A stretch of 49,592 nucleotides of DNA, from assembly GCA_021158045.1 (NCBI GenBank), contig JAGGVK010000018.1, positions 1-49,592 on the forward strand. The letters run 5' to 3'. The DNA comes from a bacterium. Its GTDB lineage: Bacteria; Patescibacteriota; Minisyncoccia; Minisyncoccales; CG1-02-41-26. The notes below the pieces were generated by a model. That model was given only the letters and a program-made list of their open reading frames with translations, was not told the origin of the DNA and did not search any database. The position numbers and the translations under genes are program-made. Positions 3,837 through 25,550 of the stretch are shown piece after piece. Position 1 is the first letter of the stretch, and every line of letters begins with the position of its first letter.

Positions 3837-4258
3837 ATTATCAACGAGACCCGGACTCGTTGTTACTTGTTGTTATTCTGAGCCGTTAGGCGAAGAATCC
3901 CCCCCATCAAAATGCAAATCTCAAATCTCAAATCTCAAAATGACATCCCTTTTTTGTCATTGCGAGGAGTCCTGTGATAAGCACTTTCCTTTTTGTCATT
4001 GCGAGGAGGACCGCCGAAGACGGGACGACGCGGCAATCTCAGGATTCTTTGTCATTTGTTTTACTTGGAATGATTACCAACTGCCATTCTGAGCCGTTAG
4101 GCGAAGAACCCCAGTAAAATCTCAAATCTCAAATCTCAAAATCACATCTCAAAATTCAAAATTACAATTCAAAATTCAAAATTCAAAACCAGAAAATGCA
4201 AATCTCAAATCTCAAATCTCAAAATGTGTTATCAACGAGACCCGGACTCGTTGTCATT
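3837..4258. repeat. Mosaic dispersed-repeat cluster 1
   Basis: Contains (AAATCTC)n runs, GTCATTGCGAGGAG modules and TCTGAGCCGTTAGGCGAAGAA modules. ATCAACGAGACCCGGACTCGTTG hairpin modules sit at both ends. The same modules recur in four other clusters. Confidence 0.9.
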
Positions 4259-9818: not shown

Positions 9819-10059
9819 AAATAAAAAGCTGAGGAAAAAAGGTTAAAAAACTGTGATTATCTTCTTTAAAAAATGGTATAAATATAATGGAAGAAATATT
9901 AAAAACCTCCATTCCTTTTTTCTCCAAAATTTATTAACAGAAAATTAACAAAAAAGAAAAAAAGAAAACGTTTAAATTATTAATTATTTGACACCCTTCC
10001 ACTTTTATTTACTTTCTCTTAATAATAATCTAAAATTAATAATATATAATATTAAATTT

Positions 10060-11193
10060 ATGAAAATTGAAATTTTAAGAGACAACCTAAAAGAAGCTTT
10101 AAATTGCTTAGAAAGAATTGCTAAGAAAAATTTAAGCTTGCCAATTTTAAATAATATCCTTTTATCCTGTGAAGGTAATTTCTTAAGATTAGATGCTACA
10201 AATCTTGAACTAAGCGTAAGCTGGTGGGTTTTATCAAAAGTAATAGATAAAGAAGGGAAAACAACGGTCCCAGCTGCCTTTTTCTCTAATCTTATCAATC
10301 TTTTAAGGGAAAAAAATATCAAAATAGAAAGTTCAGACAATAAAAATTTAATCCTTAAAACTATAAATCGTAAAATTCAAATTCAAGGGATGCCTCCCGA
10401 GGAATTTCCTATTATCCCCAAAATAAAGAGAGAGAATATTAATGAAATCTCAAGCGAAAAACTTCAAAAAGGAATAACCGAAGTTGTAGAAATTCCATCA
10501 TTATCCCAAATTAAACCAGAAATATCTGGATTATATTTCTTTTCTAAAAAAAACAAACTAAAAATTGTAGCAACTGACAGTTTTAGATTGGCTGAAAAGA
10601 CTATAAATTTAGACAGTAATTTCAAAAAAGAAGTTTCTTTCATCCTTCCCCAAGAGACTTCAAGGCAGTTAATAAGCATTTTAAGCCAAAACTTGTCAGA
10701 AAAAATAAATATTGTTTTATCACAAAACCAAATATTATTTGAGATACCTCAAAAGGAATTCTCTAAACCAAAAGTTCAAGTTTTTTCTCGCTTAATTGAT
10801 GGAGAATTTCCTAAATACCAAGAGATTATTCCTAAATCTTTTAAAACCAAACTTTTATTAGATAAAGAAGAGTTTCAGGAAAATTTAAAAGAGGCAGGGC
10901 TGTTTAGTGGAAGGGTTTCAGAGGTTAAATTAGAATCTTTTTCTAAGGAGAATAAATTAGGGTTATTTTCCCAAAGTTCTGAGTTTGGAAAAAACGAATC
11001 GTATATTCCTGCTAAAATAGAAGGAGAGGATATTAAGACATCTTTTAATTATAAGTTCCTTTTAGCAGGATTAGATAATATTGAGAGTTCTCAAGTAGTA
11101 TTAGAATTAAGCAATGAAGAAGGTCCAGGAGTTTTGAAACCGGTTGGGAGTGATGATTATTTCTATATACTAATGCCCATAAAAGCAAGTTAG
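10060..11193 (+). CDS. dnaN: DNA polymerase III beta sliding clamp
   Basis: MKIEILRDNLKEALN start, position after dnaA, typical length. The track ORF begins upstream at 9988, but the ATG at 10060 fits the family N-terminus. Confidence 0.9.
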   Translation: MKIEILRDNLKEALNCLERIAKKNLSLPILNNILLSCEGNFLRLDATNLELSVSWWVLSKVIDKEGKTTVPAAFFSNLINLLREKNIKIESSDNKNLILKTINRKIQIQGMPPEEFPIIPKIKRENINEISSEKLQKGITEVVEIPSLSQIKPEISGLYFFSKKNKLKIVATDSFRLAEKTINLDSNFKKEVSFILPQETSRQLISILSQNLSEKINIVLSQNQILFEIPQKEFSKPKVQVFSRLIDGEFPKYQEIIPKSFKTKLLLDKEEFQENLKEAGLFSGRVSEVKLESFSKENKLGLFSQSSEFGKNESYIPAKIEGEDIKTSFNYKFLLAGLDNIESSQVVLELSNEEGPGVLKPVGSDDYFYILMPIKAS

Positions 11194-11271
11194 TATAATA
11201 AATAATTATATAGGCAACACTTTTTAACTGTTATTCTAAATTTCCCTAACTATCATCCTGAACTTCCTTAT

Positions 11272-11568
11272 CTGTTATTCTGAGCCGTTAGGCGAAGAAC
11301 CCCCATGGCAAATCTCAAATCTCAAATCTCAAAATGACATCCATTTTTTGTCATTGCGAGGAGTCCCGCTGAAGGCGGGACGACGCGGCAATCTCATTAC
11401 TTCGTCATGGAATAACTACCAATTGTCATTCTGAGCCGTTAGGCGAAGAACCCCCATGGCAAATCTCAAATCTCAAATCTCAAATCTCAAAATCACAATT
11501 CAAAGTTCAAAATTTCTTTTAATTTTAGATTTTAGATTGTTATTTTTCATTTTTCGCTTTTCATTTTT
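11272..11568. repeat. Mosaic dispersed-repeat cluster 3
   Basis: Same modules as cluster 1, plus the AT-rich module AATTCAAAGTTCAAAATTTCTTTTAATTTTAGATTTTAGATTGTTATTTTTCATTTTTC. Confidence 0.9.
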
Positions 11569-11620
11569 AATTTAATTTAGCGCCTTACTTGCGCAATTAA
11601 TTGTAATATTTGTTTTAAAA

Positions 11621-13741
11621 TTATTTTTTCTCTTGGTTGAATTTTAAGACAGCGTATTCCCAATTTTTGAATTGGATATCATCCTTAGAATTTTCCTTTC
11701 CTAAAGGGTCTTTTTTGTTTAAATAATACAAAATACAATGCGGCTTTAAATTGTTTGTTTTTCCATTAAGAATAGGCTTCTCAACTAGTGTTTCTTTTGG
11801 TTTTTCAAAACTTTCTTTTTTGAAATTTTTTAAAGCAAATTCCATAAATTCGTGCCATATAGGACCAGCCAAAGTAACGCCTGGGCCTTTCATAGGAGCG
11901 TTGTTGTTATTTCCAATCCAAACACCAACAGAAATAGAAGGCGTATATCCGATTATCCAAGCATCATTGTATTTTTGAGTAGTGCCGGTTTTTACCGCTA
12001 CTTGATAACCTTTTATATATAATGGGGAATTTATGCCAAACATTGGCGCTCTTAAATTGTTACTTGAAAGAATTTGAGAAATTTCTCTAGCAACATTGCT
12101 TTCTAACACTTTAATGGAACTATTTTTTTCTTTGAATAAAATATTGCCTTTACTGTCTTCTATTTTATAAATAAAACGTGGAAAGGTTCGGTTGCCGTCT
12201 CTTCCAAAAACCCCATAAGCAGATGTTATATCTAAAAGCGTAACTTCTCCTCCACCCAAGACTAAAGACAAGCCGTATTTTAAGGGATTTTTTAAGGTGG
12301 TTATTCCTAAGTTTTTAGCAAGTTCTAAAGTATTTTTTTCTCCAGCTAAATATAATACTTTAACAGACGGCACATTTCGAGATTGGGCTAATGCCTCTTT
12401 AGCTTTAATCAACCCCTTAAACCTGCCGTCGTAATTTTTTGGATGATAGCATTTTATTCCGTATTTATCAGTAAGTTCTTCAGCAGAGGGGGAGCAGTTT
12501 GGGTTAAATTCTGTTTTTACGTCCCAAAGCAGTGTATTAGGAGTAAATCCTTTTTGGAGAAAGGTGGCATAAGCAAAAGGCTTAAAAGCAGAGCCCGGCT
12601 GGCGAAGGGAGGTGGTTATATTTACTTTAGGGTCAAACTTACAGCCTTCTTTACCACAATCTTCTGACTCTCCATACCAATTTTTTGAGCCAACTAAAGC
12701 TAAAACCTCTCCGTTTTTTGGGTTTAGAGCCACTAAAGCGCCATTATGGGCATCAAACCTCTTGTTGTATTTAACGCCTTCTTCTATAAGTTTTTCCGCC
12801 TTTTCCTGAAAATCCCAATTTAGAGTTGTGTAAACTTTTAACCCGGCTTTTTCCAAAAAATCCTTGCTATACATTTCTTCAAGTTTCCTTTTTACCATTA
12901 AAGAAAAGTGTGGCGCCTTAATAATATTGACATTTTTGAAAAATTTTATTTTTTCTTCGAGCGCTTCTTTTTCTTGAGATTCGGTGATATAACCAGCTTT
13001 TTTCATTCCTTTGAGAATGTAATTTTTTATTTGTTGAAGCCTTTCTAAATGCTCGCCATAAGGGGAAAGATATGAGGGAGAACGGATTAAAGCCGCCAAT
13101 ACAGCGCTTTCTGATAGAGATATGTCGGAAACTTTTTTATGAAAGAAAACTTCACTAGCTGTTTCTACTCCATAGATATTTCCTCCGAAAGGGATTATGT
13201 TTAAATACCATTCTAATATCTGCTCTTTCGTATATTTTCTTTCCAATTCTAAAGTTAAAATTACTTCTCTTGTTTTTCTTTTAAGAGTTTTATTTCTAGT
13301 TAAAAAATAGGACCTTATTAACTGCTGAGAAATTGTTGAACCGCCTTCTAACGGTTTTCCTAATTTTAAATCAGCCAATATTGCGCGCAGAATGGCTTTA
13401 AAATCTAAGCCCTTGTGTTGGTAGAAACTTTTGTCTTCTGCTGTTAAAACAGCTTCTCTTAATTTCATTGGTATTTGGCTTAAAGGAACTATTGTTCTTC
13501 TTTCTTTTCCTGAAATTTCGAGTAGGAGCGTTTTTCCAGTTCTGTCATAAACTTTTGTTGATTGGGGGATATCGCCTTCGGCGAATTTTTCTGGCCTTGG
13601 AAGGTCGTTTAGTGAATAAACTAAAAATAATACAAAGCCAAAAAATATAATTGCTAAAAAAACAAGGAATATTTTCAATAGAATCTTGAACCAATTCCTG
13701 TTTTTTTTATAGACAGTTTTATGATGGACTAATTTAGCCAT
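11621..13741 (-). CDS. Class A penicillin-binding protein (PBP1A-type transglycosylase/transpeptidase)
   Basis: N-terminal TM, glycosyltransferase motifs (EDKSFYQHKGLD, GGSTISQQL) and transpeptidase motifs (SAFKP, KTGTT). Confidence 0.9.
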   Translation of the reverse strand: MAKLVHHKTVYKKNRNWFKILLKIFLVFLAIIFFGFVLFLVYSLNDLPRPEKFAEGDIPQSTKVYDRTGKTLLLEISGKERRTIVPLSQIPMKLREAVLTAEDKSFYQHKGLDFKAILRAILADLKLGKPLEGGSTISQQLIRSYFLTRNKTLKRKTREVILTLELERKYTKEQILEWYLNIIPFGGNIYGVETASEVFFHKKVSDISLSESAVLAALIRSPSYLSPYGEHLERLQQIKNYILKGMKKAGYITESQEKEALEEKIKFFKNVNIIKAPHFSLMVKRKLEEMYSKDFLEKAGLKVYTTLNWDFQEKAEKLIEEGVKYNKRFDAHNGALVALNPKNGEVLALVGSKNWYGESEDCGKEGCKFDPKVNITTSLRQPGSAFKPFAYATFLQKGFTPNTLLWDVKTEFNPNCSPSAEELTDKYGIKCYHPKNYDGRFKGLIKAKEALAQSRNVPSVKVLYLAGEKNTLELAKNLGITTLKNPLKYGLSLVLGGGEVTLLDITSAYGVFGRDGNRTFPRFIYKIEDSKGNILFKEKNSSIKVLESNVAREISQILSSNNLRAPMFGINSPLYIKGYQVAVKTGTTQKYNDAWIIGYTPSISVGVWIGNNNNAPMKGPGVTLAGPIWHEFMEFALKNFKKESFEKPKETLVEKPILNGKTNNLKPHCILYYLNKKDPLGKENSKDDIQFKNWEYAVLKFNQEKK

Positions 13742-14191: not shown

Positions 14192-14364
14192 GTTGCTTAG
14201 CTAAGCTAAGCAACAAGCTAAGCAACAATGACGAAAAATAACCTATGGCCAAAATTCAAATCTCAAATCTCAAATCTCAAAATCACAATTCAAAATTCAA
14301 AATTTCTTTTAATTTTAGATTTTAGATTGTTATTTTTCATTTTTCATTTTTCACTTTTCATTTG
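14192..14364. repeat. Mosaic dispersed-repeat cluster 4 (hairpin GTTGCTTAGC/GCTAAGCAAC + heptamer run + AT-rich module), left flank of the island
   Basis: Same heptamer and AT-rich composite, in the same orientation, as at 25047-25165 and 25437-25550. Confidence 0.85.
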
Positions 14365-14410
14365 ACTTAATTGCTTTTACTCCTGAATTCTAAAAGAGGG
14401 GATTTTCTCC

Positions 14411-14554
14411 AGAGAGCTGCCAGCAAGTTTTAGGATAATACGAGCATTAGCTCTTAGAAGGCGAGGAGAGAGATTGCTAACCTTCCAAACTAATGTTCGA
14501 TCTAACTTTCCAGCCATCTCCGGGGGAGGGGCTAGAACTTACTGGCAGCTCTCT
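14411..14554. ncRNA. Candidate structured RNA or MITE-like element with a 23-bp closing helix
   Basis: AGAGAGCTGCCAGCAAGTTTTAG (14411-14433) pairs with CTAGAACTTACTGGCAGCTCTCT (14532-14554), with one C/A mismatch and one G-U pair. Internal hairpins are GAGC-atta-GCTC, GAAGG..CCTTC and AGCC-au-CTCC-ggg-GGAG-g-GGCT. Confidence 0.35.
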
Positions 14555-14844
14555 AAAGAAAAGAAAACGCAGATTTTGCTAAAATAAAACCTATTTTAAT
14601 TTGACTATTTTATTTCCTCGCTGTCAAATTTTGAGATTGCGCCCGTTATCACCATTTATTACAAAATAGCACAACTATAGAGACTGCGACAGAAACAGAA
14701 AAATCATTGCTATTGAAATTCTCGATGTTTCTCCGAGACTCCCTTACCATTCAAGGCTCAATTTAAGAAAGGGGAACCTCCTGTCTTAACTGCAGAATAA
14801 CAATTAGCGTTTAATTTCAGAGAACTCTATCCGCCAATTTTATC

Positions 14845-14882
14845 GGTGATTTTTTATTTCTAATCTCCTAAATTCAGAATAA
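14845..14882 (+). repeat. Direct repeat copy 1 (GGTGATTTTTTATTTCTAATCTCCTAAATTCAGAATAA) flanking the 100-aa ORF
   Basis: Near-identical to 15376-15412. A partial third copy (GGTGATTTTTTATTTT) lies at 19370-19385. Confidence 0.8.
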
Positions 14883-15003: not shown

Positions 15004-15306
15004 ATGGCAGAAGAAAATATCAAAAAAGTTTTAGAGGACTACAAAGAAGAAACTAATCGGCATTTTGATGTGGTGGCTGAGAATTTGGAAGATAAAATAA
15101 AACAAGTTGCTGAAGGAGTTACGCTTAACACAGAAAAATTACAAGAACACGATCGGAGATTTGACAAAATTGATGAAACCCTAGAAGTCATTAAAGTTGA
15201 TATTGAATTTATTAAACATGAACTTAAACAGAAAATTAATCGCGACGAATTTGCTATCTTAGAAAAAAGAGTGAGCATCCTTGAAGCAAAAGTGAATCGG
15301 CGGTAA
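15004..15306 (+). CDS. 100-aa coiled-coil protein
   Basis: Heptad-like charged sequence (EDKIKQVAEGV...FAILEKRVSILEAKVNRR). It is followed by a small hairpin CACCA-ttgt-TGGTG plus a T-run. No SD. An antisense ORF of equal length exists, so the strand is not certain. Confidence 0.5.
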   Translation: MAEENIKKVLEDYKEETNRHFDVVAENLEDKIKQVAEGVTLNTEKLQEHDRRFDKIDETLEVIKVDIEFIKHELKQKINRDEFAILEKRVSILEAKVNRR

Positions 15307-15375: not shown

Positions 15376-15412
15376 GGTGATTTTTTTATTTCTAATCTCC
15401 TAAATCCGGAAT
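15376..15412 (+). repeat. Direct repeat copy 2 (GGTGATTTTTTTATTTCTAATCTCCTAAATCCGGAATA)
   Basis: See 14845-14882. Confidence 0.8.
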
Positions 15413-15511
15413 AGCTTACGGAGGCCCGACCTCCGTAAAATGGCTTTGAAGACTGAAAAAGAGGTAGAAGGAGGAAGAATAATAGTAAACTCTTACCTCC
15501 TTCCTTATGTT

Positions 15512-15883
15512 TCAATCCTCGTCCCGGCGTTTAGCCGCAGGGTCGAGGTTTTCAAACTCTAGCTTTACCGCTCTTATCCTGTGGAACTTTTTGAAGCGAT
15601 AATATCTGCTAGCTGCTTCTACTTCTGATTTCTCTTCCGGTACAATTTCCATTTCTGCCCAGAGAGGATGAACTCCCATATCGCAAATCCGAGTAATAAT
15701 TGAGAGTGGAGCCACAATTACCATTTCATCGTATCCACCCTGCTTGAATATCTTTACTACTTCTTCTGCTGAAGCAAACGGATTCGGAACCTGTTCAATT
15801 TTAATCTCTCCGAAAATCCGCCTTAACTCCCTCTCTTGACTGGGAAGCCAAGGGTGCCTGCTCATCCATAAAATTTTTTTCAC
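15512..15883 (-). CDS. 123-aa protein of unknown family (last gene of the island array)
   Basis: GTG start with GGAGGG SD 7 nt upstream. No motif recognised. Confidence 0.65.
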   Translation of the reverse strand: MKKILWMSRHPWLPSQERELRRIFGEIKIEQVPNPFASAEEVVKIFKQGGYDEMVIVAPLSIITRICDMGVHPLWAEMEIVPEEKSEVEAASRYYRFKKFHRIRAVKLEFENLDPAAKRRDED

Positions 15884-16092
15884 GGATAATCCCTCCTTAT
15901 TCTTTTTTAAAACTGCTACTGAACCGAAGTTCAGGTTTTGACTTATAATTTTACATTATAGACCAAAATCTAAACTCCAAAGATAGGTAGAAGGAGAAGA
16001 AAGATGAGTGCAACATCTTTCTCCTCCTTTTTTTTCTTTTAAAGTGCATTCGGTTTTTTATTTTTGGCTGGACCGAAAATCAGCCATTTATC
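15884..16092. repeat. Island intergenic cassette, copy A
   Basis: Shares ordered blocks with 19315-19577. These are the CTGAAC-loop-GTTCAG hairpin (15919-15934), the block GACCAAAATCTAAACTCCA, the purine/pyrimidine hairpin (15992-16027) plus T8, and a GC hairpin. Confidence 0.75.
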
Positions 16093-19000
16093 TCAATCAT
16101 CACCTCCTTCTAACTTATTTTTAAGAGCTTGGAGTATTTCTTCGGTAACTTCGCCTTCTTTCTCAGAAGGTTCAGTTACTGGGTCACTGGAATCAGCTTT
16201 CTTTTTCGCTTCTTCCAGTTTCTGCTCCAATCCCCTTATTCGTTCCGCCTCCTCAGGAAATGGAGGCTCTAAATGCACTATCACCAATTTGAACCGAGAA
16301 CCACTTATTAACTCTCGACCCAAACTGCAATAGTACATCTTCCCCTCAACCGGCTGACTTCCCCAGCGGTCAACAATGTACTTCACGGTTAATTTACCGT
16401 CTTTAGTAATTGCCTCCCACTGGTCTTCGCCAGTTTTGGGATGTTTGCCCTTGGAGAATCGAAGCCGGATATAACCTTGCTGTTGAGCAATTTTTATGTC
16501 TTCCTCGTATTCTCTTTGGGCTTGCTCCAATTCCCTTTCTGTCCGTTTCAGCTTTACTGCTTCCGGGTTCAGAATCCGCTTGAAATCCTTGAATTCCAGG
16601 GAGTCAAATATCTCTCCTTCTGTCCAGCGACTATCGTCTAAATCGTAGTCAGTAAGTAAGTAGATCTCGCCTACCTCTCTCCGGCGAGAACCACAAGAAC
16701 AACGAAGTTCAGCTACCACTTTTCCGGTATCTGTAACAATTTGAGAAAGCACTGCTGCTTCAATCGGGTATCCTTCCTCATCATATTCAGGGAACTCAAT
16801 CCTTTCCAGCTCATGACTAGCTCTACATTCACCATCATCCATTTCTTTTCCGCAAAGAGGACAATGGGAATAGTGCTTAGCAATTGCCTGTTCAACTTTC
16901 CTTGTGCATTCCGCTCGTTTCTCTAGCAGTTTCTGCAACCCTTTCGTCTTCTCCGAACCCTCGTTAACCAGCTCTAAGGCTTTTTTAAAATTCTCCTTCC
17001 TTAGAGCTGCTTCGCTTTTCCGGATAAAGTTTTGGATATTCTCTTTCTCTTTATATTTAAGAAAGGTATTATCCTCAACTTCCTCCAGAAACTTCTGAAG
17101 GTTGGAGAGCTTTTTCTCCGCTTCCATTTTCAGTCTTTCCGGCTGGCGGATCAATTCTACCAAAACTGTCTCTTCTCCAACTTGAACTTTTAACTCTCTA
17201 ATTTTCTCCTCTTCTAGCAATTGATATTCATCAGCAGAGAAAGGATATAGTATCAGTCCTATCCCCGTAGCAACTTCCTTCTGGGTTTTCATTTGAGAAA
17301 TTTTTTCTAGTTTTTGGGGTGCCAGTTTTGATCCATAGAGAAATCCATCCTTTGTCACATAAAACCATTCCCAATCTGGTCTATCTTCTATTTTCCACCG
17401 TGCTTCTTCTGGCAGAGAAGCAATTTCAGGAAGAATATCTTTCCCCATTCTCCAACTATTTCTGCTCTGCCATTTCCCACTCAACAGTTCCTTCGCCTCA
17501 TTCCGTATCTGTTTCAGTTCTTCCGGGGTTAAGAGAGAAATTGCTTTTTCTCTTTTTTCCTGACTTAAGCATTTGTAGCAGAGTTTCCGTCCAGAAATTG
17601 GGGAAACAGTCGGGTAGGTTCCAGCTTTTCCACATCCTTCGCATTTCTCCTCCTGCCGGCAGAGATTACAGCGCTTATCCTTCCCCTTTGACTCATACCG
17701 CTGGCGTCCACATTTGCACAACGGAAACCATTCCTCAATTTGCGTCCTTACAACCTTGGGAAGTTTCTCAAGAGTTGTTTCTGTTTCCACCCATTTTTCG
17801 TTCCATCCGGATTTCAAAAGAGCTGAAATTCTGATAACCCATCCTGGATCCCAAACCGGGTCCAATCTGTGATTGTAGAACTCACTGCCATCGTATCGAT
17901 AACAATTCCATTCCAACGGATTCTCTTCCGCTACTATCTCTTTCGAAACCAATTTTTCCTTTCCTGTCCGACTCCACTCCAGACCATCTTTGTTATACTT
18001 TACTTTCTGTTTCTCTTCGCAAAGAAACTTCTTCTTGATGATCTGGACTTTCACTCCGGCTTCTGAAAGAACAACTTTGTATTCTTGTCGTTCCTCCGGA
18101 ACCTCTCGAGTCTCAAGTTTTACTTCTCTTGATCCGAGAGATTTTTCCGTACCATCATACTCAATGCGAACTGTACTAATTTCAACCGTATCCGTGTCCT
18201 CAGTCTCCGTTATCTGTTCTCTATATTTCGGTCCTGCTGGAATCGCACGCAGCCCCCTTCCCCGTTTAGCCAGAAATACCCGATAGGTTTTGCCTTTTTC
18301 AGGTTTCCAGCCATCTTGGGGAAAAACCGGCTTCCGTTCGTGCCAGGCAATAAGCCGCTCTTCCTTTTCAGTTGAACGACGCTCATCGCATTCAAAAGAA
18401 ACCTCATCAATTTCCATTAACTCGGCTTCCTCCGAACTCGGCTGGCCAAACCGGCCCTCTTTATCAACCGACTGGCAATGGAGAGTGTAAACTCTCATAC
18501 ACTCTTTTGAAAAAGCATCCATTGCCGTTTGAAAAGTTGCTTCGTCTTGATACTCAAATGGACGAAGCGACTTTCTAACTATAACTACCCCATGACGGAT
18601 TTCGTAATCATAGCCATACTGCCGGTCAATTTCTGCCTCTGGGAGAACCGAGGTCAACTCTTGCGCCAAGAAAGCCCGGATTCTATCCCCCCCATTGATG
18701 TGACCAGATTTAAGCTGGTCTTCACAATGAAGGAGAGTTAATCGACGGACTTCCTTTTCCACATCTGCCCAGGCCTGCTTCCAGTTTTCTTCAGAAGTAA
18801 ATTCCGTCTCAGCCAGGTGCCGCGTCAATTCCAATTCCTGTCCTTTGTGAGTCCGGTATTCAAAACCGCTCTGCCACTTGACCGTTGGGTCAATTACTTT
18901 GCCGAGCTTAACCTTTAGAGTTGGGCAAAGCGATCTGCCCCCATAATGTGTCAGTTCGAATATCACATCTGTAGTCGCCTCAAGAATATCCTTAATCTCA

Positions 19001-19314
19001 GCCATTCCATTTACAACCCGAACACCTTTTCCAGTTGTTACCCGCAGAACTGCTGCCAGAGCATGGGCCTTAAAGAACTCCACAGCAGATTTTACATTTT
19101 CCGCTTTCAGAGTTTTCCTTCCCTTTCTTTCTCCACCCACGATAAAGAAATACATTGGGTGGATGATTTGACAGTCCGATTCCAGTTCACCAATATCCTC
19201 CACCTCATTCTCCAGCCTGAAACCGTAACCGGTCAGGCCTTTGAAAAAGGTGGCTGCTGGCAATGACCTATAAAGGTCAATTGCCTCTTTCAATCCCTTA
19301 CGCACTTTTTCCAT
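16093..19314 (-). CDS. 1073-aa protein of unknown family with two zinc-ribbon clusters and coiled-coil segments
   Basis: AGGAGG SD 6 nt upstream of the ATG. Cys clusters are CKC..CNLC..CEGC..CYKC (aa 533-582) and HCPLC..C..H..CSC (aa 817-874). Acidic C-terminal tail. Confidence 0.85.
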   Translation of the reverse strand: MEKVRKGLKEAIDLYRSLPAATFFKGLTGYGFRLENEVEDIGELESDCQIIHPMYFFIVGGERKGRKTLKAENVKSAVEFFKAHALAAVLRVTTGKGVRVVNGMAEIKDILEATTDVIFELTHYGGRSLCPTLKVKLGKVIDPTVKWQSGFEYRTHKGQELELTRHLAETEFTSEENWKQAWADVEKEVRRLTLLHCEDQLKSGHINGGDRIRAFLAQELTSVLPEAEIDRQYGYDYEIRHGVVIVRKSLRPFEYQDEATFQTAMDAFSKECMRVYTLHCQSVDKEGRFGQPSSEEAELMEIDEVSFECDERRSTEKEERLIAWHERKPVFPQDGWKPEKGKTYRVFLAKRGRGLRAIPAGPKYREQITETEDTDTVEISTVRIEYDGTEKSLGSREVKLETREVPEERQEYKVVLSEAGVKVQIIKKKFLCEEKQKVKYNKDGLEWSRTGKEKLVSKEIVAEENPLEWNCYRYDGSEFYNHRLDPVWDPGWVIRISALLKSGWNEKWVETETTLEKLPKVVRTQIEEWFPLCKCGRQRYESKGKDKRCNLCRQEEKCEGCGKAGTYPTVSPISGRKLCYKCLSQEKREKAISLLTPEELKQIRNEAKELLSGKWQSRNSWRMGKDILPEIASLPEEARWKIEDRPDWEWFYVTKDGFLYGSKLAPQKLEKISQMKTQKEVATGIGLILYPFSADEYQLLEEEKIRELKVQVGEETVLVELIRQPERLKMEAEKKLSNLQKFLEEVEDNTFLKYKEKENIQNFIRKSEAALRKENFKKALELVNEGSEKTKGLQKLLEKRAECTRKVEQAIAKHYSHCPLCGKEMDDGECRASHELERIEFPEYDEEGYPIEAAVLSQIVTDTGKVVAELRCSCGSRRREVGEIYLLTDYDLDDSRWTEGEIFDSLEFKDFKRILNPEAVKLKRTERELEQAQREYEEDIKIAQQQGYIRLRFSKGKHPKTGEDQWEAITKDGKLTVKYIVDRWGSQPVEGKMYYCSLGRELISGSRFKLVIVHLEPPFPEEAERIRGLEQKLEEAKKKADSSDPVTEPSEKEGEVTEEILQALKNKLEGGDD

Positions 19315-19577
19315 CTTTTCCCTCCTTTCCCGAAATTCGGGATTGCTCGTCTGTGCCAGACGGACAAAAGGTGATTTTTTATTTTTTAAAGTGCCTTCTG
19401 AACCTGAAGTTCAGGTTTTAGGCTATGTTTTTTACAGACCAAAATCTGAATTCCAGGAAAATTTGGTTAGAGGGAGAAGAAAGTGCAAGCTCTTCTCCCT
19501 CTTTTATTTTTATTTTACGAGTGCGGCCCTTTTGTTTTTTACGGCCAGCCAAGGGCAATGCTGGCTAACCGGTTCGG
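19315..19577. repeat. Island intergenic cassette, copy B
   Basis: CTGAAC-ctgaa-GTTCAG (19398-19414), the block GACCAAAATCTGAATTCCA, a 12-bp perfect hairpin AGAGGGAGAAGA/TCTTCTCCCTCT (19469-19502) plus a T-rich tail, and the hairpin CCAGC..GCTGG. Confidence 0.75.
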
Positions 19578-21182
19578 TCAGACTTTACCAAAGACCTCAC
19601 CGGCTTCCTCCGAGTTCAGCTCCGAGACCAGAACAATCTCATCGCTGAACTCTTTTGCTGCCGCACGACTCGAGCTACCAACGTCAACAAGAACTGTCAC
19701 TACTTGAACTTCTTCTTTCCTCTTGAATTCCTGAAACTGCTCTCGAAACGAATCCGACACCGCGCATTCCCCATCGGTCACAAAACAGATATCAGCCCGC
19801 GGTAACTTTCCGGACTCCACAATTTCTTGTGCTTTCCCGAGTGGTTTTTCAAAATCCGTACCGCCACCCAGAAAGAATTCTGCCATCTGAATCAGTTTCT
19901 TGTAATTCGCTTCTCCTGTGCGAATCCAAAACTCCTTTATCGGGTCATCTCTGCTTCCGAACATCAGGTAGACGAAGTCGCGTCGTTTTGACTTGGAAAC
20001 TTGCCACAATCCAAGTGCCACCGCTTTCGCCCAAATCTCTTTCGCGCCTTCCATTGAGCCAGAATTATCAATTCCTACGATAATCGGTCCCTCACCCAGT
20101 TTCTCCTTCCGCTCCACTTCGTATTGCAACAACTGCTGATTAGCGAATTTCCGCAAGAATTCCATTTTCAGTACAGGATGAGCTAAGAATTGCATTTCTG
20201 AAGGAATAACCTTATCCAAGTCATTTCCCCGACGAACATTGACTACCATTCCAGCTGGAGCTTGGATTTTCTCTTTCTGTCGCGCAATTGCGAGCCGTCT
20301 GAACTTCCCTAAGAGTTTGGAAATCTGTTTTAGTTTTGAAGACGATTCCAGTTTCTTTTTCAATTCCAGTTTCTGTTCATAATCCAGTTTCTGTATTTCA
20401 CCCGGTTCTACTCCCCAGGATTCCAACATTTCACTCGTTTCCTTCGCATTCTCCGCTGCTTCTTTTGCTGCTTTCCGCATTCCTCTCCGGAACTGTTCCG
20501 AATTCTGCTGTAAGTCCTGTTCCAGTCCATCTGCCATCTGTTCCAACTGCTGTTTTGCCTCATCAAGCGTCATTTGGGCTTGAGAGGTCTGTTGTCCGAG
20601 AGAATTCGCCTGCTGTTGCATCTGTTGTGCCTGTTGCTGCAGCTGTTGAGCTTGAGTTCCAGTTGCAGTCTGCGCCTGTTGTTGTAAGTCATCTGCCTGT
20701 CCCTGCGCTGCTTCTGCTTGCTGTTGCAAATCCTGTGTCTGCTGCTGCAACTGCTGGCTCTTCTGCTCTTGTTGCTGTAGCTGCTGAATTTTCTGTTTTG
20801 TCTCTTCTGGAATCAGTTCCAACGCTACTGGTCCGAGGGTAAGAGTTGCCATCGCAGAACCAAATTCGTCCAGTTCAGTATACTGCCGTAACTCTGGATA
20901 CTGCTTCGTGGCCAATAACTTTTCCATCAGCATCCGATTAACCCGTCGCGAAGGAACCACTGCCCCTGCTTTCCGCAGTTGGGGATCCGCTTTGTAGAGC
21001 GCTGAGTAGATATCTTGTATCAAATCCGAAAATACCGGTAGAGTTTGAATTCCATTTCGTTCCATTTCCACCAACTTTTCCGACTTCTGTTTCAACTGGG
21101 AAAATGCTGCCCGATCATATCTGTCACAGCGGATTGCCCAAGGGAATTGCTGGATTTCTTCCTCTCTTCTTTTCATTTTCAT
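19578..21182 (-). CDS. ViaA-like von Willebrand factor A (vWA) protein with a Gln-rich central insert
   Basis: C-terminal vWA with an intact MIDAS (IVGIDNSGSM ... GGGTDF ... FVTDGE). The linker QQLLQYEV preceding the vWA resembles ViaA KQLLTYRL. The GGAGG SD overlaps the end of the upstream AAA+ gene. Confidence 0.85.
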   Translation of the reverse strand: MKMKRREEEIQQFPWAIRCDRYDRAAFSQLKQKSEKLVEMERNGIQTLPVFSDLIQDIYSALYKADPQLRKAGAVVPSRRVNRMLMEKLLATKQYPELRQYTELDEFGSAMATLTLGPVALELIPEETKQKIQQLQQQEQKSQQLQQQTQDLQQQAEAAQGQADDLQQQAQTATGTQAQQLQQQAQQMQQQANSLGQQTSQAQMTLDEAKQQLEQMADGLEQDLQQNSEQFRRGMRKAAKEAAENAKETSEMLESWGVEPGEIQKLDYEQKLELKKKLESSSKLKQISKLLGKFRRLAIARQKEKIQAPAGMVVNVRRGNDLDKVIPSEMQFLAHPVLKMEFLRKFANQQLLQYEVERKEKLGEGPIIVGIDNSGSMEGAKEIWAKAVALGLWQVSKSKRRDFVYLMFGSRDDPIKEFWIRTGEANYKKLIQMAEFFLGGGTDFEKPLGKAQEIVESGKLPRADICFVTDGECAVSDSFREQFQEFKRKEEVQVVTVLVDVGSSSRAAAKEFSDEIVLVSELNSEEAGEVFGKV

Positions 21183-21194
21183 CTTCCGCCTCCT

Positions 21195-22364
21195 TTAGAG
21201 TTCAATCCCAAGGCATTCTTTAACCACATCCCGGAGGTACCGTTCCACCGCATCCTTCACATCCTCAATTTTCCCAGTAGGTGCACCAGCCCGCTTCGCC
21301 TCATCCAGAAGATTTACCACATTCGTTCGGATGTTTTTGAGTTTTGCATTTGCCTCAGTTCCTAATTTGGATTTTCTGCTCTCATCCTGTTCACCGAGTG
21401 CCTCATCACGGATTTCCGTTGCTGTATCCAGAAGTTCTTGAGCCCGAAGTGCTAAAGGATTTGCCACCTCCAATACGACATCCCTGACTTTCCGAATATC
21501 CTTTTGCTCATCCCACAAGCAGTGCTGAAGCATCAGCAGGTCTTCCTCTTCCACTTTCTGCCTGTCTTCCAGTAACGCGTGCGCTTGCAATACTAGGTTC
21601 AGTCGGACATCCCTACGGCCATAGACAACAATCCCTTGGTCATAGAGTTTTTCAATAATTTCCTCTACTTTTTCGTCTATGGTTTCCGGGACTTCAACTT
21701 CCACCACCTGCTGTTGCAACTGTTGGAGTTCTGTAAGAGAAATTTTGGGAGCATCGAACTTTCCTTTCGGATCGCCTTTCCTCCGCAGATACGATAACTG
21801 CCTCATCCGAATCCTTTCGGACTTTTCCTTTATCCGTCCTACTACGAATCGGAACATAAACCGGTCGTAGAACGCCTCCAAATCTTCTTCTGGAGCATTG
21901 TTCGTTGCCCCGAAAAGAGAAATTAGAGGGCAGTCCAGTTGGCGTCCTTTTAGTGTCCATTTCCGTTCGTTAATCAACAGCAATAAAGCGTTCAAGGTAG
22001 CCGGATTGCAACGGAAGATTTCCTCCAATACGGCAATGTGTGCCTGCTGGAGCATTCCTTCGCCGCGTGGAGTAATCTCAATCCTTTTTCTGCCGTCACC
22101 GAGATCCTGTTCAACATAGTCCCTATCCGAAACGAACAAGTCATCTGGAACAGTGTCCTGTGCGAGTAGGTGTTTGAAGTAGGTCACTCCATCCAAGGTC
22201 CGGCACAGCAGCTCTATCAACATACTTTTCGCTTCCCCCGGAGGGCCAAATAATATGCCGTGCTGCTTTGACAGCAAAGCACATATTAGCCCCCGGATGA
22301 CTTCCTTTCTTCCTACCAAGAGACGGTTCAGTTCCGTCTCTATTCTCTTCATTTTTTCAATCAT
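21195..22364 (-). CDS. RavA/MoxR-family AAA+ ATPase
   Basis: Walker A GPPGEAKS, Walker B IAVLEEIF, sensor GATN, DRFMFR. The LLMLQHCLWDEQKD segment parallels RavA LILLKDCLWYDAQS. I prefer the ATG at 22364 (AAGGAGG 5 nt upstream) over the track start at 22391. Confidence 0.9.
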   Translation of the reverse strand: MIEKMKRIETELNRLLVGRKEVIRGLICALLSKQHGILFGPPGEAKSMLIELLCRTLDGVTYFKHLLAQDTVPDDLFVSDRDYVEQDLGDGRKRIEITPRGEGMLQQAHIAVLEEIFRCNPATLNALLLLINERKWTLKGRQLDCPLISLFGATNNAPEEDLEAFYDRFMFRFVVGRIKEKSERIRMRQLSYLRRKGDPKGKFDAPKISLTELQQLQQQVVEVEVPETIDEKVEEIIEKLYDQGIVVYGRRDVRLNLVLQAHALLEDRQKVEEEDLLMLQHCLWDEQKDIRKVRDVVLEVANPLALRAQELLDTATEIRDEALGEQDESRKSKLGTEANAKLKNIRTNVVNLLDEAKRAGAPTGKIEDVKDAVERYLRDVVKECLGIEL

Positions 22365-22500
22365 TCTTTCCTCCTTTCCGGCATCTTTCATCTTTGCCGG
22401 TTCTCATTTTTTTAAGGTTCCTCTCTGATAACCCAGAGAGAATACTGAGGGCAAAATTTTCGTCCCCAATATTCTCCCAAGGTTTCTTATAAAAAAGAGA

Positions 22501-22547: not shown

Positions 22548-22865
22548 CTAATCGATTAAGTCACCGGGGCGGTACTTATCGCCGTGAGAAACGGCGACAA
22601 CATACCTTCCCAGTTTGGGGTCAAACACCGCCACCACCTCGTAGAGGTGGACCACCGCGTGCCCAATCGCGATGGCAACTGGGAGACTCGCCGGCCCGTT
22701 TATCTTAATCAGGGAGCCGCCGGCAAGCTCACCTGATTTGACCATCTCGTCCAGACGCGCAACCGCGTCACGGACGATTTGGTCATTTTGAGCCGGGTCG
22801 CCAAACCCGACCCTCAACACATCGCCCTCTTCGAGGGTAATGTGATAAGTTTTTTCTTTAGCCAT
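22548..22865 (-). CDS. csx3: Csx3-family protein (CRISPR-associated cA4 ring nuclease, Crn3 type), orphan
   Basis: LIKINGPASLPVAIAIGHAVVHLYEVVAVFDPKLGRYVVAVSHGDKYRPGDLID matches my recollection of the A. fulgidus Csx3 core (VVISGRGPIWLHCFLAHKYHHTPFVAVYDPRLGAVVVQSHSELREGDVID). AAGGAGGG SD before the ATG at 22865. Confidence 0.7.
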   Translation of the reverse strand: MAKEKTYHITLEEGDVLRVGFGDPAQNDQIVRDAVARLDEMVKSGELAGGSLIKINGPASLPVAIAIGHAVVHLYEVVAVFDPKLGRYVVAVSHGDKYRPGDLID

Positions 22866-22992
22866 TTTTACCCTCCTTATGTTCACCCAGAATAAAATGG
22901 CAAATTCTGGACTAAGGGATTGTTAGTTTAAGCCTCTTTTTCAGCCCCCTATGGTTTATTTTTACATCGTCTCCAATCGACGATGGGCAAAA

Positions 22993-23586
22993 TTACTTTT
23001 CCTCGGCGGTTGCCATCCGCACGAGGAATTGGGCAAGTGCGACCACACAGGGTCGCTGGCTCACATCCTCACCTCTTTCAAGGTAATGGATGGAGCCTCT
23101 AAAGATACCGTCCTTGCCCACACCATGAACGGTATCTTCCTGGCCATGATAATCGCTGAAAATTTCAGCGATTATCTTTAACCCGAGTTCTGAACAAAAC
23201 GCTCTCCACTCGGGTACCTTATCCATGTCACCAGCCAGGATGATGGCATGGGTGGCGGTTTTGCAAATTTTTTTATTTTCCACTGATGGAATACCGCCAA
23301 TATCCACCAGAGTGAGCGGGAGTTGACAGTTGACGACTGAGTCTGCCACCCGCTTGACAAACTCAGGAGAAAACCCACTTAAGGAGGCCTTATATTCCTC
23401 CTTTAAGCGGCGGGCTTCCTCGGGCGACCGGTTTGCAGTCTCTTGAAACCAGGCGCCCTCGCCGTCCGGGCACGCCGTAATTACGTAGGGATACGGCGCC
23501 CCCGGAATTCTTTTGATTGCCTGCTTCAATCCCTCTCGCAGGCAACTCTTCCCGCTACGTGGCGGGCCACAGAGCACAATTTTCAT
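22993..23586 (-). CDS. 197-aa P-loop NTPase, operonic with csx3
   Basis: Walker A GPPRSGKS at the N-terminus. Walker B/DxxG LTLVDIGG. GGAGGTG SD 8 nt upstream. Confidence 0.75.
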   Translation of the reverse strand: MKIVLCGPPRSGKSCLREGLKQAIKRIPGAPYPYVITACPDGEGAWFQETANRSPEEARRLKEEYKASLSGFSPEFVKRVADSVVNCQLPLTLVDIGGIPSVENKKICKTATHAIILAGDMDKVPEWRAFCSELGLKIIAEIFSDYHGQEDTVHGVGKDGIFRGSIHYLERGEDVSQRPCVVALAQFLVRMATAEEK

Positions 23587-24136
23587 TGTGCTCTCACCTC
23601 CTTTGCCCGCCTGCGCGGGCTTTTTTTATTCTCCTTTTTTTTAGCAAGGAGTGCACCGTGCACTTTCAACCAATCGCTTACTTTTGGACAGCAAGTGTTG
23701 GCTGGCGCGTCCGCCAATGAAAGTGCACGGGCGCACTCATTACTAAGGTTGAGAGAGGTGGAGGCAACCGAAACTGACCTTCCATCTCCTCGATGTGATA
23801 GGTTAACCTCAGTTGTATCTCACTTTTTACCCCTGATTGTCACAAAACCTGTATTTTAAAGAGCTAATTCTCTCCTCTTGGGAGAAGGATAGAGAAGAAC
23901 ATTTTTATCTGTTTGATGTAGATGATTGTTTGGCTGGCTAACAAACAGTCAGGATAGCCTAATTCGAGCCTTATTCTCCCTCCTCTATCCTTCTCCCCTG
24001 AACCAATCTTTGCTCTAGTTCAGCAGGAGGAAGAGGTTATTTATATTGTTAAAAGGGCTAAATAATAGGCGACTCTCAGAGAGAGTCGCCTATTGCAGCA
24101 TTTCTACAATTTCGCTCTCTCCTCGAAACTTGATAA
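23587..24136 (-). promoter_or_regulatory. ~550-nt structured leader or ncRNA region between the tandem promoters and the P-loop gene
   Basis: No credible ORF. It holds a 13-bp hairpin (24064-24094), a CTGAAC..GTTCAG hairpin (23998-24023) and a 15-bp long-range stem (23880-23894 / 23983-23997). It also holds two AGTGCAC-type palindromes (23650-23664, 23722-23737) and the GC hairpin GCCCGC-ctgc-GCGGGC (23605-23620). Confidence 0.5.
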
Positions 24137-24142
24137 TATTTA

Positions 24143-24302
24143 ATTGTAGTATATTTTCGGGATTTTGTCAAGGTATTCTCTATATGTCTGTCCTTTTTCT
24201 AAGTACCTCTATTATAATACATTCAAATTTCCTTGTCAATAGTTTATTTTTATTTCTCTTCTAAAGCACTCTGATTATAGCATATTTAATTTTGTTTGTC
24301 AA
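24143..24302 (-). promoter_or_regulatory. Three tandem near-consensus sigma70 promoters reading leftward
   Basis: On the minus strand: TTGACA(24302-24297)-17nt-TATAAT(24279-24274), TTGACA(24239-24234)-17nt-TATAAT(24216-24211) and TTGACA(24171-24166)-17nt-TACAAT(24148-24143). Confidence 0.55.
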
Positions 24303-24875: not shown

Positions 24876-25550
24876 CCAAAATCTCAAATCTCAAATCTCA
24901 AATCTCAAAATGACATCTCAAAATGCAAAATTAGAAAATTCAAAATGCAAATTTAGAAAAGCAAAATCTCAAATCTCAAAATGACCCTGAAGCAGAACAA
25001 GTTCGCTACAGGGCAGGCAGTATTGCTTACCCTGGGTAAGCAATAGGAATCTCAAACCTCAAATCTCAAATCTCAAAATGACAATTCAAAGTTCAAAATT
25101 TCTTTTAATTTTAGATTTTAGATTGTTATTTTTCATTTTTCACTTTTCATTTTTAATTTTTCATTGCCTTGCGAGGAGTCCTGCTGAAGGCGGGACGACG
25201 CGGCAATCTCAGGATTGCAGTAATAGGAGGAAGGGATTGCTTCGTCAGTCGCTTCGCTCCTTCCTCGCAATGACAGGGGAATGGAATCGTTTCACTCAGG
25301 ATGACAGTGAGGATAAAATAAAAAAGACAAGGACTTTTTAAATGACGAAACCCGAATGACGAATGACGAAAAAATGTTATCAACGAGACCCGGACTCGTT
25401 GTCGTTCTGAGCCGTTAGGCGAAGAATCCCAGCCAAAATGCAAATCTCAAATCTCAAATCTCAAAATGACAATTCAAAGTTCAAAATTTCTTTTAATTTT
25501 AGATTTTAGATTGTTATTTTTCATTTTTCACTTTTCATTTTTCATTTTTT
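24876..25550. repeat. Mosaic dispersed-repeat cluster 5 (largest), right flank of the island
   Basis: All module types are present. The heptamer and AT-rich composite occurs twice (25047-25165, 25437-25550). The GAAGCGACTGACGAAGCAATC module is in inverted orientation at 25235-25275. Confidence 0.9.

Follow-up and report, generated by a model that had tools for sequence, protein, structure and literature searches.

A candidate MoxR–vWA ternary-type conflict module with a new third partner and a putative cyclic oligoadenylate input in Patescibacteria

What might a MoxR-class AAA+ ATPase and a von Willebrand factor A (vWA) protein do when they are encoded beside a 1073-residue protein of no recognised family and a Csx3 gene? 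The question is raised by positions 1 to 49,592 of contig JAGGVK010000018.1 (assembly GCA_021158045.1, Patescibacteriota), a stretch of 49,592 nucleotides that we refer to as the window. Six co-oriented genes on its minus strand encode a P-loop NTPase, Csx3, MoxR, the vWA protein, the giant protein, and a protein of 123 amino acids. An initial annotation of this DNA had proposed that the last four form a candidate ternary conflict system, and all four open reading frames (ORFs) are present on the minus strand where it had placed them. The explanation that we favour, with a confidence that is about evenly balanced, is a horizontally acquired, self-contained MoxR–vWA ternary-type conflict module with a new third component and a cyclic oligoadenylate (cOA) input, and we infer for it a role in defence, probably anti-phage or abortive infection.

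The genes lie in an island that is compositionally foreign and is set inside a housekeeping region. Its GC content is 0.44–0.50 over 16–24 kb, compared with 0.31–0.38 in both flanks and 33–37% for the genome, which bears out the foreign origin that had been assigned to it. The block is bounded by a class A penicillin-binding protein gene (PBP1) and by ruvC-yebC-ruvB, a few kilobases from dnaA/dnaN/yidC, and the remainder of the window consists of replication, repair, cell-wall, and tRNA genes.

The MoxR gene (21195–22391; this and the other five genes are read on the minus strand) encodes 398 amino acids that comprise a RavA-like AAA+ module plus lid, as judged from Pfam, a PDB match, and motifs. 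The protein matches Pfam bpMoxR PF20030 with an E value of 2e-33 and 115.6 bits (cutoff 27), AAA_5 with 66.2 bits (cutoff 22), and AAA_lid_8 with 53.3 bits (cutoff 22.8), and these sequence matches place it in the MoxR clade. Its best solved relative is the AAA+ module of RavA (PDB, E 3e-29), wherein MoxR residues 10–309 align with residues 9–303 of the ~498 residues of RavA and the segment DLLMLQHCLW is paired with DLILLKDCLW. Across 25 family members, the Walker A motif GPPGEAKS, the sensor-1 residue N164, R177, and R259/R260/R263 are invariant. The Walker A and B motifs, the sensor, and the RavA-like LLMLQHCLW segment that had been read from this sequence are therefore supported by Pfam, by the RavA alignment, and by the 25-member motif comparison. 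The Walker B motif reads LEE in the window copy only and D-E in 19 of the 25 relatives, a conservative aspartate-to-glutamate change that is probably still functional. Note that M10 (nucleotide 22364) has a better Shine–Dalgarno (SD) sequence than the annotated MoxR start and may be the true one. Measured against the RavA equivalog NF010054, MoxR reaches 124.6 bits where the cutoff is 681, and it lacks the triple-helical/LARA region, the RavA alignment stopping at about residue 309.

The vWA protein (534 amino acids, 19578–21182) is assigned as a vWA/MIDAS adaptor from its metal-ion-dependent adhesion site (MIDAS) motif and from a sub-cutoff match to the NCBIfam ViaA model. It begins with a ViaA-like helical and glutamine-rich coiled-coil region and ends with the vWA domain (residues ~360–534). 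By its sequence, this domain conforms to the vWA/MIDAS definition (DxSxS ... T ... D): D372-x-S374-x-S376, T442, and D470 are intact and are invariant across 30 homologues, which substantiates the earlier report of an intact MIDAS. The homologues carry PF13519 VWA_2, a member of the domain group whose only Pfam match to the copy in the window is a weak one, to VWA_CoxE. The ViaA model (NCBIfam PRK10997) is matched with an E value of 4e-18 over positions 77–444 of 487, so the resemblance to ViaA that had been noted is real, but it is sub-threshold, with 65.7 bits against a cutoff of 500 for the equivalog NF008230. The two proteins are thus a RavA/ViaA-like pair, as proposed, but not RavA and ViaA proper, because both scores fall far under the equivalog cutoffs and the LARA region is missing.

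MoxR lies directly upstream of vWA at every related locus that has sequence there. In the window, the junction reads TAA-AGGAGGCGGAAG-ATG, with a spacer of 12 nucleotides; the initial annotation gave this distance correctly but placed the SD sequence inside the 3' end of the AAA+ gene, whereas it lies in the spacer right after the stop codon. The gap between the vWA gene and the giant gene is 263 nucleotides and holds a hairpin, and coupling between these two genes is therefore not translational.

The giant protein (1073 amino acids, 16093–19314) is a zinc-ribbon protein in which three parts can be delimited: an orphan N-domain (residues 1 to ~310, 18385–19314), defined by family alignment and AlphaFold2 (AF2) modelling; module B (residues ~311–690, 17245–18384), defined by profile search and family alignment; and a variable C-terminal region (residues ~691–1073, 16093–17244), in which the family alignment distinguishes two subtypes. 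Relatives of the whole protein are scarce, with 10 in 5.8 billion clustered proteins and two among 185,579 species (one genome each), both of them Patescibacteria metagenome-assembled genomes (MAGs) and one a member of the Saccharibacteria. When 1.84 billion representatives were searched exhaustively with a profile, the N-domain was present in ~22 of the 147 cluster representatives recovered, and ~100 further representatives of 500–900 amino acids match only giant-protein residues ~310–690 and have no N-domain. Module B, and not the whole giant protein, is the conserved third partner that defines the family; the proposal that the giant protein is the third component holds for its middle module but not for the entire protein, which the ~100 representatives without an N-domain do not share.

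Module B is made up of a β-rich domain, zinc ribbons formed by four invariant cysteine pairs (C533/C535, C549/C552, C558/C561, and C579/C582, all conserved), and a helical domain. The original failure to recognise the third component is upheld by our searches, in which module B has no Pfam, PADLOC, PDB-sequence, or Foldseek match. Specifically, the giant protein has no match in Pfam (E ≤ 0.01), NCBIfam, or PADLOC, 10 module-B proteins match no Pfam family at E ≤ 0.001, a giant-family profile searched against PDB sequences returns nothing meaningful, and the full-length model yields nothing at E ≤ 1e-3 when compared by Foldseek with the PDB and BFVD. Weak Foldseek matches are to DNA binders with OB folds, namely LEF-3 of baculovirus (in both libraries) and HIN domains, at E values above 0.03; those to urate oxidase (T-fold), SycT, and ARPC2 were judged to be uninformative.

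The AF2 model, which was built on an 11-sequence family alignment, has a mean predicted local distance difference test (pLDDT) score of 71.8, with residues 1–400 at ~85–90. Beyond residue 400, it shows long β hairpins, poorly modelled zinc ribbons, confident helices at 580–815, and a weaker C-terminus, including low pLDDT values at residues 835–915. The N-domain is built of four repeats, each a helix with three to four long strands. Its invariant motifs are LRVTTGxG, FE[LV]TH[YF]GGRS, and WQSGF, and its invariant residues include many glycines as well as the polar residues R91, T93, D109, E120, T122, H123, R165, D184, E188, and R191, a pattern from which the N-domain could be catalytic. The C-terminus of the window protein belongs to type 1, which is shared with the proteins P0002 and P0003 and contains a second cysteine cluster and a coiled coil. 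The other subtype shares 48% identity with the C-terminal end of a DEAH-helicase protein. This alternative domain, found at residues 791–1006 of P0007 and 1081–1292 of P0047, also ends DEAH/HA2 helicase proteins of 1300–1600 amino acids and is an uncharacterised shuffled domain. A tie between the window protein and helicases was rejected, because the DEAH fusions match only the alternative subtype.

MoxR, vWA, and module B are encoded together in a fixed order. At all nine distinct loci of the N-domain form, which include divergent ones (MoxR ~25% and vWA ~31% identical), the giant gene is preceded by MoxR and vWA homologues. A metagenome scan with an alignment of the shorter module-B proteins returned 35 loci, in which the module-B gene lies directly 3' of vWA, and vWA 3' of MoxR, wherever upstream sequence exists; the vWA proteins of module-B-only loci are homologous to that of the window (E 1e-60 to 1e-91). 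When genes were assigned with family hidden Markov models and loci were collapsed to non-redundant groups, the order MoxR–vWA–module B was found in ~30 of ~30 groups, with one or two small ORFs intervening in five. Pairwise divergences of the three proteins correlate with one another (Spearman 0.76–0.90 over 18 loci; 0 of 2000 permutations reach the observed values), and we conclude from this that they are inherited as one unit. The initial annotation had treated four genes as one module, and the triad of MoxR, vWA, and giant protein is indeed co-conserved, but the 123-residue protein occurs in only seven of the ~30 groups. A single exception to the module-B rule is locus L010 from a Patescibacteria MAG (9977–11200), where the third gene encodes the N-domain alone (407 amino acids) and module B could not be detected in the vicinity; this copy has degenerated, or else the N-domain is able to act alone.

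The family is found almost only in Patescibacteria. More than 186 vWA homologues were recovered, and those that are at least 40% identical come from metagenomes of the Candidate Phyla Radiation (CPR) type; one contig labelled as Woesearchaeota carries the full system plus HD_4. The window also encodes a type IV secretion system-type pilin and a lamin-tail-domain protein, which we take to be typical of CPR bacteria (Patescibacteria), in agreement with where relatives of the system occur. A scan of 2.9 million viral contigs with both family alignments returned no relatives. Homologues of the vWA protein at 31–35% identity occur in Moorellaceae and in a 4.4-Mb genome, both without module B, and such distant homologues beyond the CPR were not counted as the same system because module B is missing. 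Module B is specific to one clade of RavA/ViaA-like pairs. The Moorellaceae locus (L050, 8075–11479) has an Imm70 gene between MoxR and vWA, with IS605/TnpB, a gene for the PemK toxin, and a group II intron around it, and is a candidate for a different MoxR–vWA conflict module.

Neighbourhoods are variable. The 150 neighbour proteins taken from ~25 loci match 107 Pfam families, of which none occurs in more than three proteins. The recurring flank families are serine recombinases (which adjoin three related loci), methyltransferases, PIN, and HicB, together with housekeeping FtsK and Mur ligase. The initial annotation had held that its idea would fail if homologous operons lay in core-genome settings linked to a metabolic complex; the flanks have no constant metabolic partner, and for the triad the idea stands.

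These data bear directly on whether the pair serves an ordinary cellular function instead. A dedicated chaperone or assembly system, with no conflict role, could mature or remodel the large zinc-ribbon protein or its complex for a CPR-specific function such as nucleic-acid handling or episymbiosis, with Csx3 and its AAA partner as a nucleotide-responsive regulator. All characterised MoxR–vWA pairs act as chaperones in maturation or remodelling (PMC9976466, PMC3893208), the window MoxR most resembles RavA and the vWA protein ViaA, no toxin domain is recognisable, and more distant pairs without module B lie in ordinary metabolic surroundings. Nevertheless, we consider this explanation unlikely, since such a function sits poorly with the very patchy distribution (10 giant-protein relatives in 5.8 billion proteins and two in 185,579 species genomes), with the foreign GC content, with flanks that differ at each locus and include recombinases and toxin–antitoxin genes, with the consistent link to CRISPR-accessory families, and with the rapid shuffling of the partner's termini.

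Csx3 and its NTPase are part of that link. The P-loop NTPase (197 amino acids, 22993–23586) is assigned by PADLOC as the AAA half of a split AAA-Csx3 protein (C3a67/Csx3-AAA family), with E values of 1.6e-59 to Csx3-AAA PDLC01045 and 7.8e-35 to C3a67, and its motifs GPP[HR]SGK[ST], PDGEG, and LVDxGG do not vary among 18 relatives. The Csx3/Crn3 domain protein (22548–22886, identified with PADLOC and Pfam) is read as 112 amino acids from a GTG codon. Its true start is likely the ATG at 22865 (105 amino acids), which is preceded by an AAGGAGGG SD sequence, and in a sister contig the protein is called with 105 residues. Csx3 is matched with an E value of 5e-27 by PADLOC and with 24.5 bits by Pfam Cas_csx3 (cutoff 21); against NCBIfam TIGR02579 it scores 25.4 bits (cutoff 55.4). 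When aligned with Csx3 of Archaeoglobus fulgidus, for which the roles of H57, H60, D69, R71, and H80 have been described (PMC7371418), it keeps H57, H60, D69, and H80 and has lysine for R71, and this set, including the lysine, is conserved in nine split Csx3 homologues.

The AAA and/or Csx3 components, split or fused, are encoded upstream of MoxR in 19 of the 21 locus groups for which 3 kb or more of sequence is available there. Csx3 and the P-loop NTPase are therefore integral, near-constant components, which brings the system to five components or more; the initial annotation was correct in naming a CRISPR-signalling gene beside the module, which the PADLOC match to Csx3 confirms, but not in regarding it as a mere neighbour. 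Fusions of Csx3 and AAA were previously catalogued under clusters 35 and 67 of the type III CRISPR accessory proteins (Shah et al. 2018, PMC6546367), and the function of the AAA domain of Crn3 has been described as unknown (bioRxiv 10.1101/2024.09.24.614671). At other loci, HD_4 and PHP phosphoesterases recur as neighbours, as do Mvol_0529-fam, Csx15, and C3a69/Unk_01 (in some cases a CARF fusion), all three of which are type III accessory families. Two further accessory domains, X249 (~11 locus groups) and X439 (~4), occur between AAA-Csx3 and MoxR and in some cases form fusions with one another or with AAA-Csx3; examples are L020 4053–4799, L007 5081–5851, and the C-terminus of L010 4599–6317, and further L027 2199–3515, L026 2969–4396, L031 2516–3817, and L039 1238–3220. 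Neither has a Pfam or PADLOC match, and the single X439 protein that was tested has no PDB-sequence match. HD_4, PHP, C3a69, Mvol_0529-fam, Csx15, X249, and X439 are all missing from the window, which is therefore a minimal version of the system.

A cOA input raises the matter of the signal's source. CPR genomes often lack CRISPR. No cas family appears among the top 25 families per library for the neighbour proteins, and a type III accessory setting, beside a cas cassette or array, was found neither in the window nor at the ~25 related loci. One explanation is a CRISPR-independent system that makes its own nucleotide signal, with the N-domain or X249/X439 as a new cyclase and Csx3-AAA as the cognate receiver or off-switch. 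It would account for sensors of the cyclic tetra-adenylate (cA4) family that are nearly always present although no Cas10 or constant CD-NTase is linked, and the invariant Gly, Asp, Glu, His, and Arg residues of the N-domain, whose fold is unmatched, suggest an active site; X249/X439 recur in a suitable position, between AAA-Csx3 and MoxR. However, most systems have no N-domain and the window has no X249/X439, so there is no universal candidate, no nucleotidyltransferase or Palm-fold similarity was detected, and the case is an argument from absence; we regard it as highly unlikely. At one locus (L025), a CD-NTase gene (11173–12138, minus strand) that matches the PADLOC cyclase model (E 2e-55) and a CdnD-type nucleotidyltransferase in the PDB (E 2e-12) lies 1.5 kb downstream of the related operon and on the opposite strand to it, adjoining an unannotated 426-residue gene (12153–13430, minus strand). 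The CD-NTase was rejected as a component, being present at this single locus and on the opposite strand, and we treat it as an adjacent system resembling cyclic-oligonucleotide-based antiphage signalling (CBASS).

For the conflict module that we favour, the following mechanism can be proposed. A Csx3 dimer would bind cA4, since the relevant residues are retained in the alignment and the ligand is that of the family as characterised biochemically; in Crn3, cA4 is sandwiched between dimers and drives oligomerisation. Csx3 would control its partner NTPase, whose motifs are intact and whose recurrent fusion to Csx3 suggests such coupling. A RavA-like MoxR hexamer, recruited via the MIDAS of the vWA protein, would then spend ATP on the remodelling, assembly, or release of the module-B protein, by analogy with RavA–ViaA, NorQ–NorD, and the published model for ternary systems. 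With its β-domain and zinc ribbons, module B may engage nucleic acid, as is weakly suggested by the OB-like fold matches, the zinc ribbons, and the helicase-shared domain of paralogues. The variable terminal domains (in the window, the N-domain and the type-1 C-terminus) may act as effector or sensor, and the signal could be reset by ring-nuclease activity of Csx3 or, at other loci, by HD_4 or PHP phosphoesterases. We have moderate confidence in this division of labour, in which Csx3 and the NTPase provide input and reset, MoxR–vWA remodels module B, and module B with its ends provides effector or sensing functions. A bolder version is a CRISPR-independent cOA immune pathway of CPR bacteria in which MoxR–vWA is a cA4-controlled executor and the N-domain or module B represents a new nucleic-acid-directed effector class or even the signal generator; this we consider doubtful.

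Several points weigh against a conflict module of this kind. The main gap is that a signal source is not encoded in the island: the 49.6-kb window contains no cas gene and no CRISPR array, and across the window and ~25 neighbourhoods there is no Cas10, array, or constant cyclase, which leaves the origin of any cA4 unexplained. Two loci with ample upstream sequence (L004 and L048) lack both AAA and Csx3. None of the components contains a domain that can be recognised as a known toxin or nuclease, and the suggestion of nucleic-acid binding draws on Foldseek matches with E values above 0.03. RavA–ViaA-type pairs can be housekeeping chaperones, and in the 4.4-Mb genome a plain MoxR–vWA pair lies amid CoA-transferase genes. 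Absence from viral contigs does not separate defence from other roles. In PADLOC-DB v2.0.0, only AAA and Csx3 match, so the system is not a catalogued one; the check with PADLOC that had been recommended thus identified these two proteins but not MoxR, the giant protein, or the 123-residue protein, and the vWA protein gives only low-complexity coiled-coil matches to JetC/ZorA.

The edges of the island hold repeats. Direct repeats of 116 nucleotides around it (14248–14363, 25044–25159, and 25432–25547) belong to a dispersed intergenic family (AAATCTCAAATCTCAAATCTCAAAAT..., followed by its near-complement) with copies at window positions 3916, 4117, 4200, 11310, 11468, 14258, 24886, 25054, and 25442 that are 90–96% identical to each other, where none is expected by chance. 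Attachment (att) sites were rejected as an explanation, because the same repeat is also present at 3.9–4.2 kb and 11.3–11.5 kb; the 116-nucleotide repeat is a dispersed host repeat family. It may be an element similar to miniature inverted-repeat transposable elements or repetitive extragenic palindromes, and a hotspot of recombination or assembly breaks. Sister-strain contigs end inside this repeat beside ruvC, one sample contains both an island-bearing contig and a second contig that stops at the repeat next to ruvC, and a look-up from the PBP1 side returned only one 2.3-kb contig. The two contigs of that sample hint at heterogeneity of the island among sister strains, but only weakly, since the contigs break within the repeat and the other flank yielded nothing.

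In another explanation, the genes are cargo of a mobile element: Csx3 would destroy host cA4 as an anti-type III CRISPR activity, and MoxR–vWA–module B would serve the replication, partition, or transfer of the element. Viruses and plasmids use ring nucleases against type III signalling (PMC7371418, PMC13148439), and the foreign composition and the serine recombinases beside three related loci are as expected for such cargo; zinc ribbons, OB-like features, and a C-terminal domain shared with helicases would be in keeping with a protein that handles DNA. Nevertheless, the island and most related loci are devoid of genes for integrases, replication, conjugation, or phage structural proteins, the viral contigs hold no relatives, the repeats are not att sites, and the NTPase partner of Csx3 and the CARF-associated families point to reception of a signal, not to its destruction alone. 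We therefore judge it distinctly unlikely.

Returning to the favoured conflict module, its non-coding DNA offers several candidate regulatory features. A putative promoter and leader (23587–24302, minus strand) was delimited by promoter scan and sequence: perfect 12/12 σ70 matches occur on the minus strand at 24302–24274, 24239–24211, and 24830–24801, an 11/12 match at 24171–24143, and an ORF-free stretch of ~550 nucleotides with 50% GC separates the σ70 matches from the AAA gene. We infer the promoter/leader function from these sequence features; the leader has no Rfam match and is not conserved at related loci, and the non-coding DNA of the island, when scanned permissively against Rfam, returned chance miRNA matches only. 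An intergenic element with a purine-rich hairpin lies upstream of the giant gene (19376–19517, minus strand), as seen from its sequence and by comparison of copies. A second copy (15897–16041, minus strand; repeat families D5 and D6), 71.5% identical to it across 151 nucleotides, lies upstream of the 123-residue protein gene. These duplicated hairpins may be attenuators, terminators, or processing sites. A third, related hairpin is at 15456–15486, 3' of the same small gene.

Two further features were observed. Inverted-repeat arms of 31 nucleotides, 87% complementary and 98 nucleotides apart (window 14403–14562), give an RNA fold of -67.8 kcal/mol (z = -5.1 versus shuffles); this could be a structured RNA or DNA element at the island edge, and it has no Rfam match and is absent from related loci. 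An ORF for a 100-residue coiled-coil protein (15004–15306, plus strand) lies between 32-nucleotide direct repeats that are 94% identical (14850–14881 and 15382–15413). It has a close homologue (E 6e-46) in locus L034 (12309–12860, minus strand), ~2 kb downstream of the module-B gene, and may represent a small gene that is mobile or associated with the island.

The 123-residue protein (15512–15883), characterised through its homologues and an AF2 model, is an optional accessory; where present, it is encoded before MoxR or after module B. The model has a pLDDT of 92.4 and a small Rossmann-like βαβαβαβ fold, and S8, H10, Q16, and A58-P59-L60 (an APL motif) are invariant. All 27 homologues are small, and the single organism-named one is from Magasanikbacteria (CPR). 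The protein has no Pfam, PADLOC, or PDB-sequence match, and its best Foldseek E value is 0.011, with generic Rossmann matches only and none significant. Assignments as a HAD protein (weak NCBIfam match) or as CARF-like (Cam1, Foldseek probability 0.38) were not accepted.

If the bolder, CRISPR-independent pathway is true, it would be the first in which an AAA+ chaperone is an output of cOA signalling, and it would give a first function to the AAA partner of Crn3; the constant linkage to MoxR–vWA–module B already supplies a concrete downstream partner for the Crn3/Csx3-fused AAA domain. CPR bacteria are regarded as poor in known defence systems, and a lineage-specific mobile system would help to account for their survival of phage attack. 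For the N-domain, module B, and the 123-residue protein there are confident or fairly confident models and no structural match, which makes them candidates for new folds or activities.

How, then, does the system compare with those already known? MoxR–vWA ternary conflict systems have been described in four classes (VMAP, iSTAND, FtsH, and β-propeller), with a third component that has variable termini around a constant core, and the fusion of a Csx3 domain to a vWA component was observed once (Kaur, Burroughs, Iyer & Aravind 2020, PMC7159879). The present system shares their general definition of MoxR, vWA, and a system-specific third protein in a mobile neighbourhood: the adjacent pair is invariant, the termini of the third protein are shuffled around a core that stays constant, and the distribution is mobile and patchy. 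The window MoxR scores best on the bpMoxR model, which was built from the β-propeller class. In contrast, its third component is not a VMAP, iSTAND, FtsH, or propeller protein. The giant protein (E ≤ 0.01) and 10 module-B proteins (E ≤ 0.001) match no VMAP model, the giant protein has no P-loop or AAA match in Pfam, NCBIfam, or PADLOC, and neither its AF2 secondary structure nor Pfam indicates TPRs or a propeller. The window vWA domain stands at the C-terminal end after ViaA-like helices, with no C-terminal effector and no room for a β-propeller. The published systems are from multicellular lineages, whereas this one occurs in ultra-small unicellular CPR bacteria and is nearly always accompanied by AAA-Csx3. 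It would stand as a fifth class beside the four already described, and its presence in reduced unicellular episymbionts challenges the proposed link between ternary systems and multicellularity. No description of the operon was found in the literature, of which full-text coverage was incomplete, so this is absence of evidence only; with that limit, we regard it as a previously undescribed MoxR–vWA ternary-type system with a new third partner.

Escherichia coli RavA–ViaA provides the closest solved or curated relatives, with the same gene order and the same layout of N-terminal helices and C-terminal vWA domain. The window system departs from it in its scores (124.6 versus 681 and 65.7 versus 500 bits), in having no LARA region and no LdcI, Frd, or Nuo context, and in the presence of a third gene and Csx3/AAA. 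With AAA-Csx3 proteins it shares strong profile matches (1.6e-59 and 5e-27; 2e-47 for the fused form), the catalytic His and Asp residues, and the company of other type III accessory families. Unlike these proteins, AAA and Csx3 are split into two genes in the window (they are fused at other loci) and R71 is replaced by lysine; unlike type III accessories, they have no cas genes or array nearby and are constantly linked to MoxR–vWA–module B, a link that is not mentioned in the available portions of the type III accessory surveys.

The nearest precedent for the combination is UAS-55/64/66 (Altae-Tran et al. 2023, PMC10910872), where CARF is linked to vWA–MoxR–VMAP near type III loci and a cyclic-oligonucleotide sensor is thus joined to a MoxR–vWA ternary system. 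Those loci carry VMAP, TCAD9, and EAD7 beside CRISPR arrays, whereas the system described here has module B and no CRISPR, and its sensor is Csx3, with a STAS-like fold and not a canonical CARF domain. By analogy, the pairing of a sensor with MoxR–vWA in the UAS loci suggests that machines of this type may be activated by cOA.

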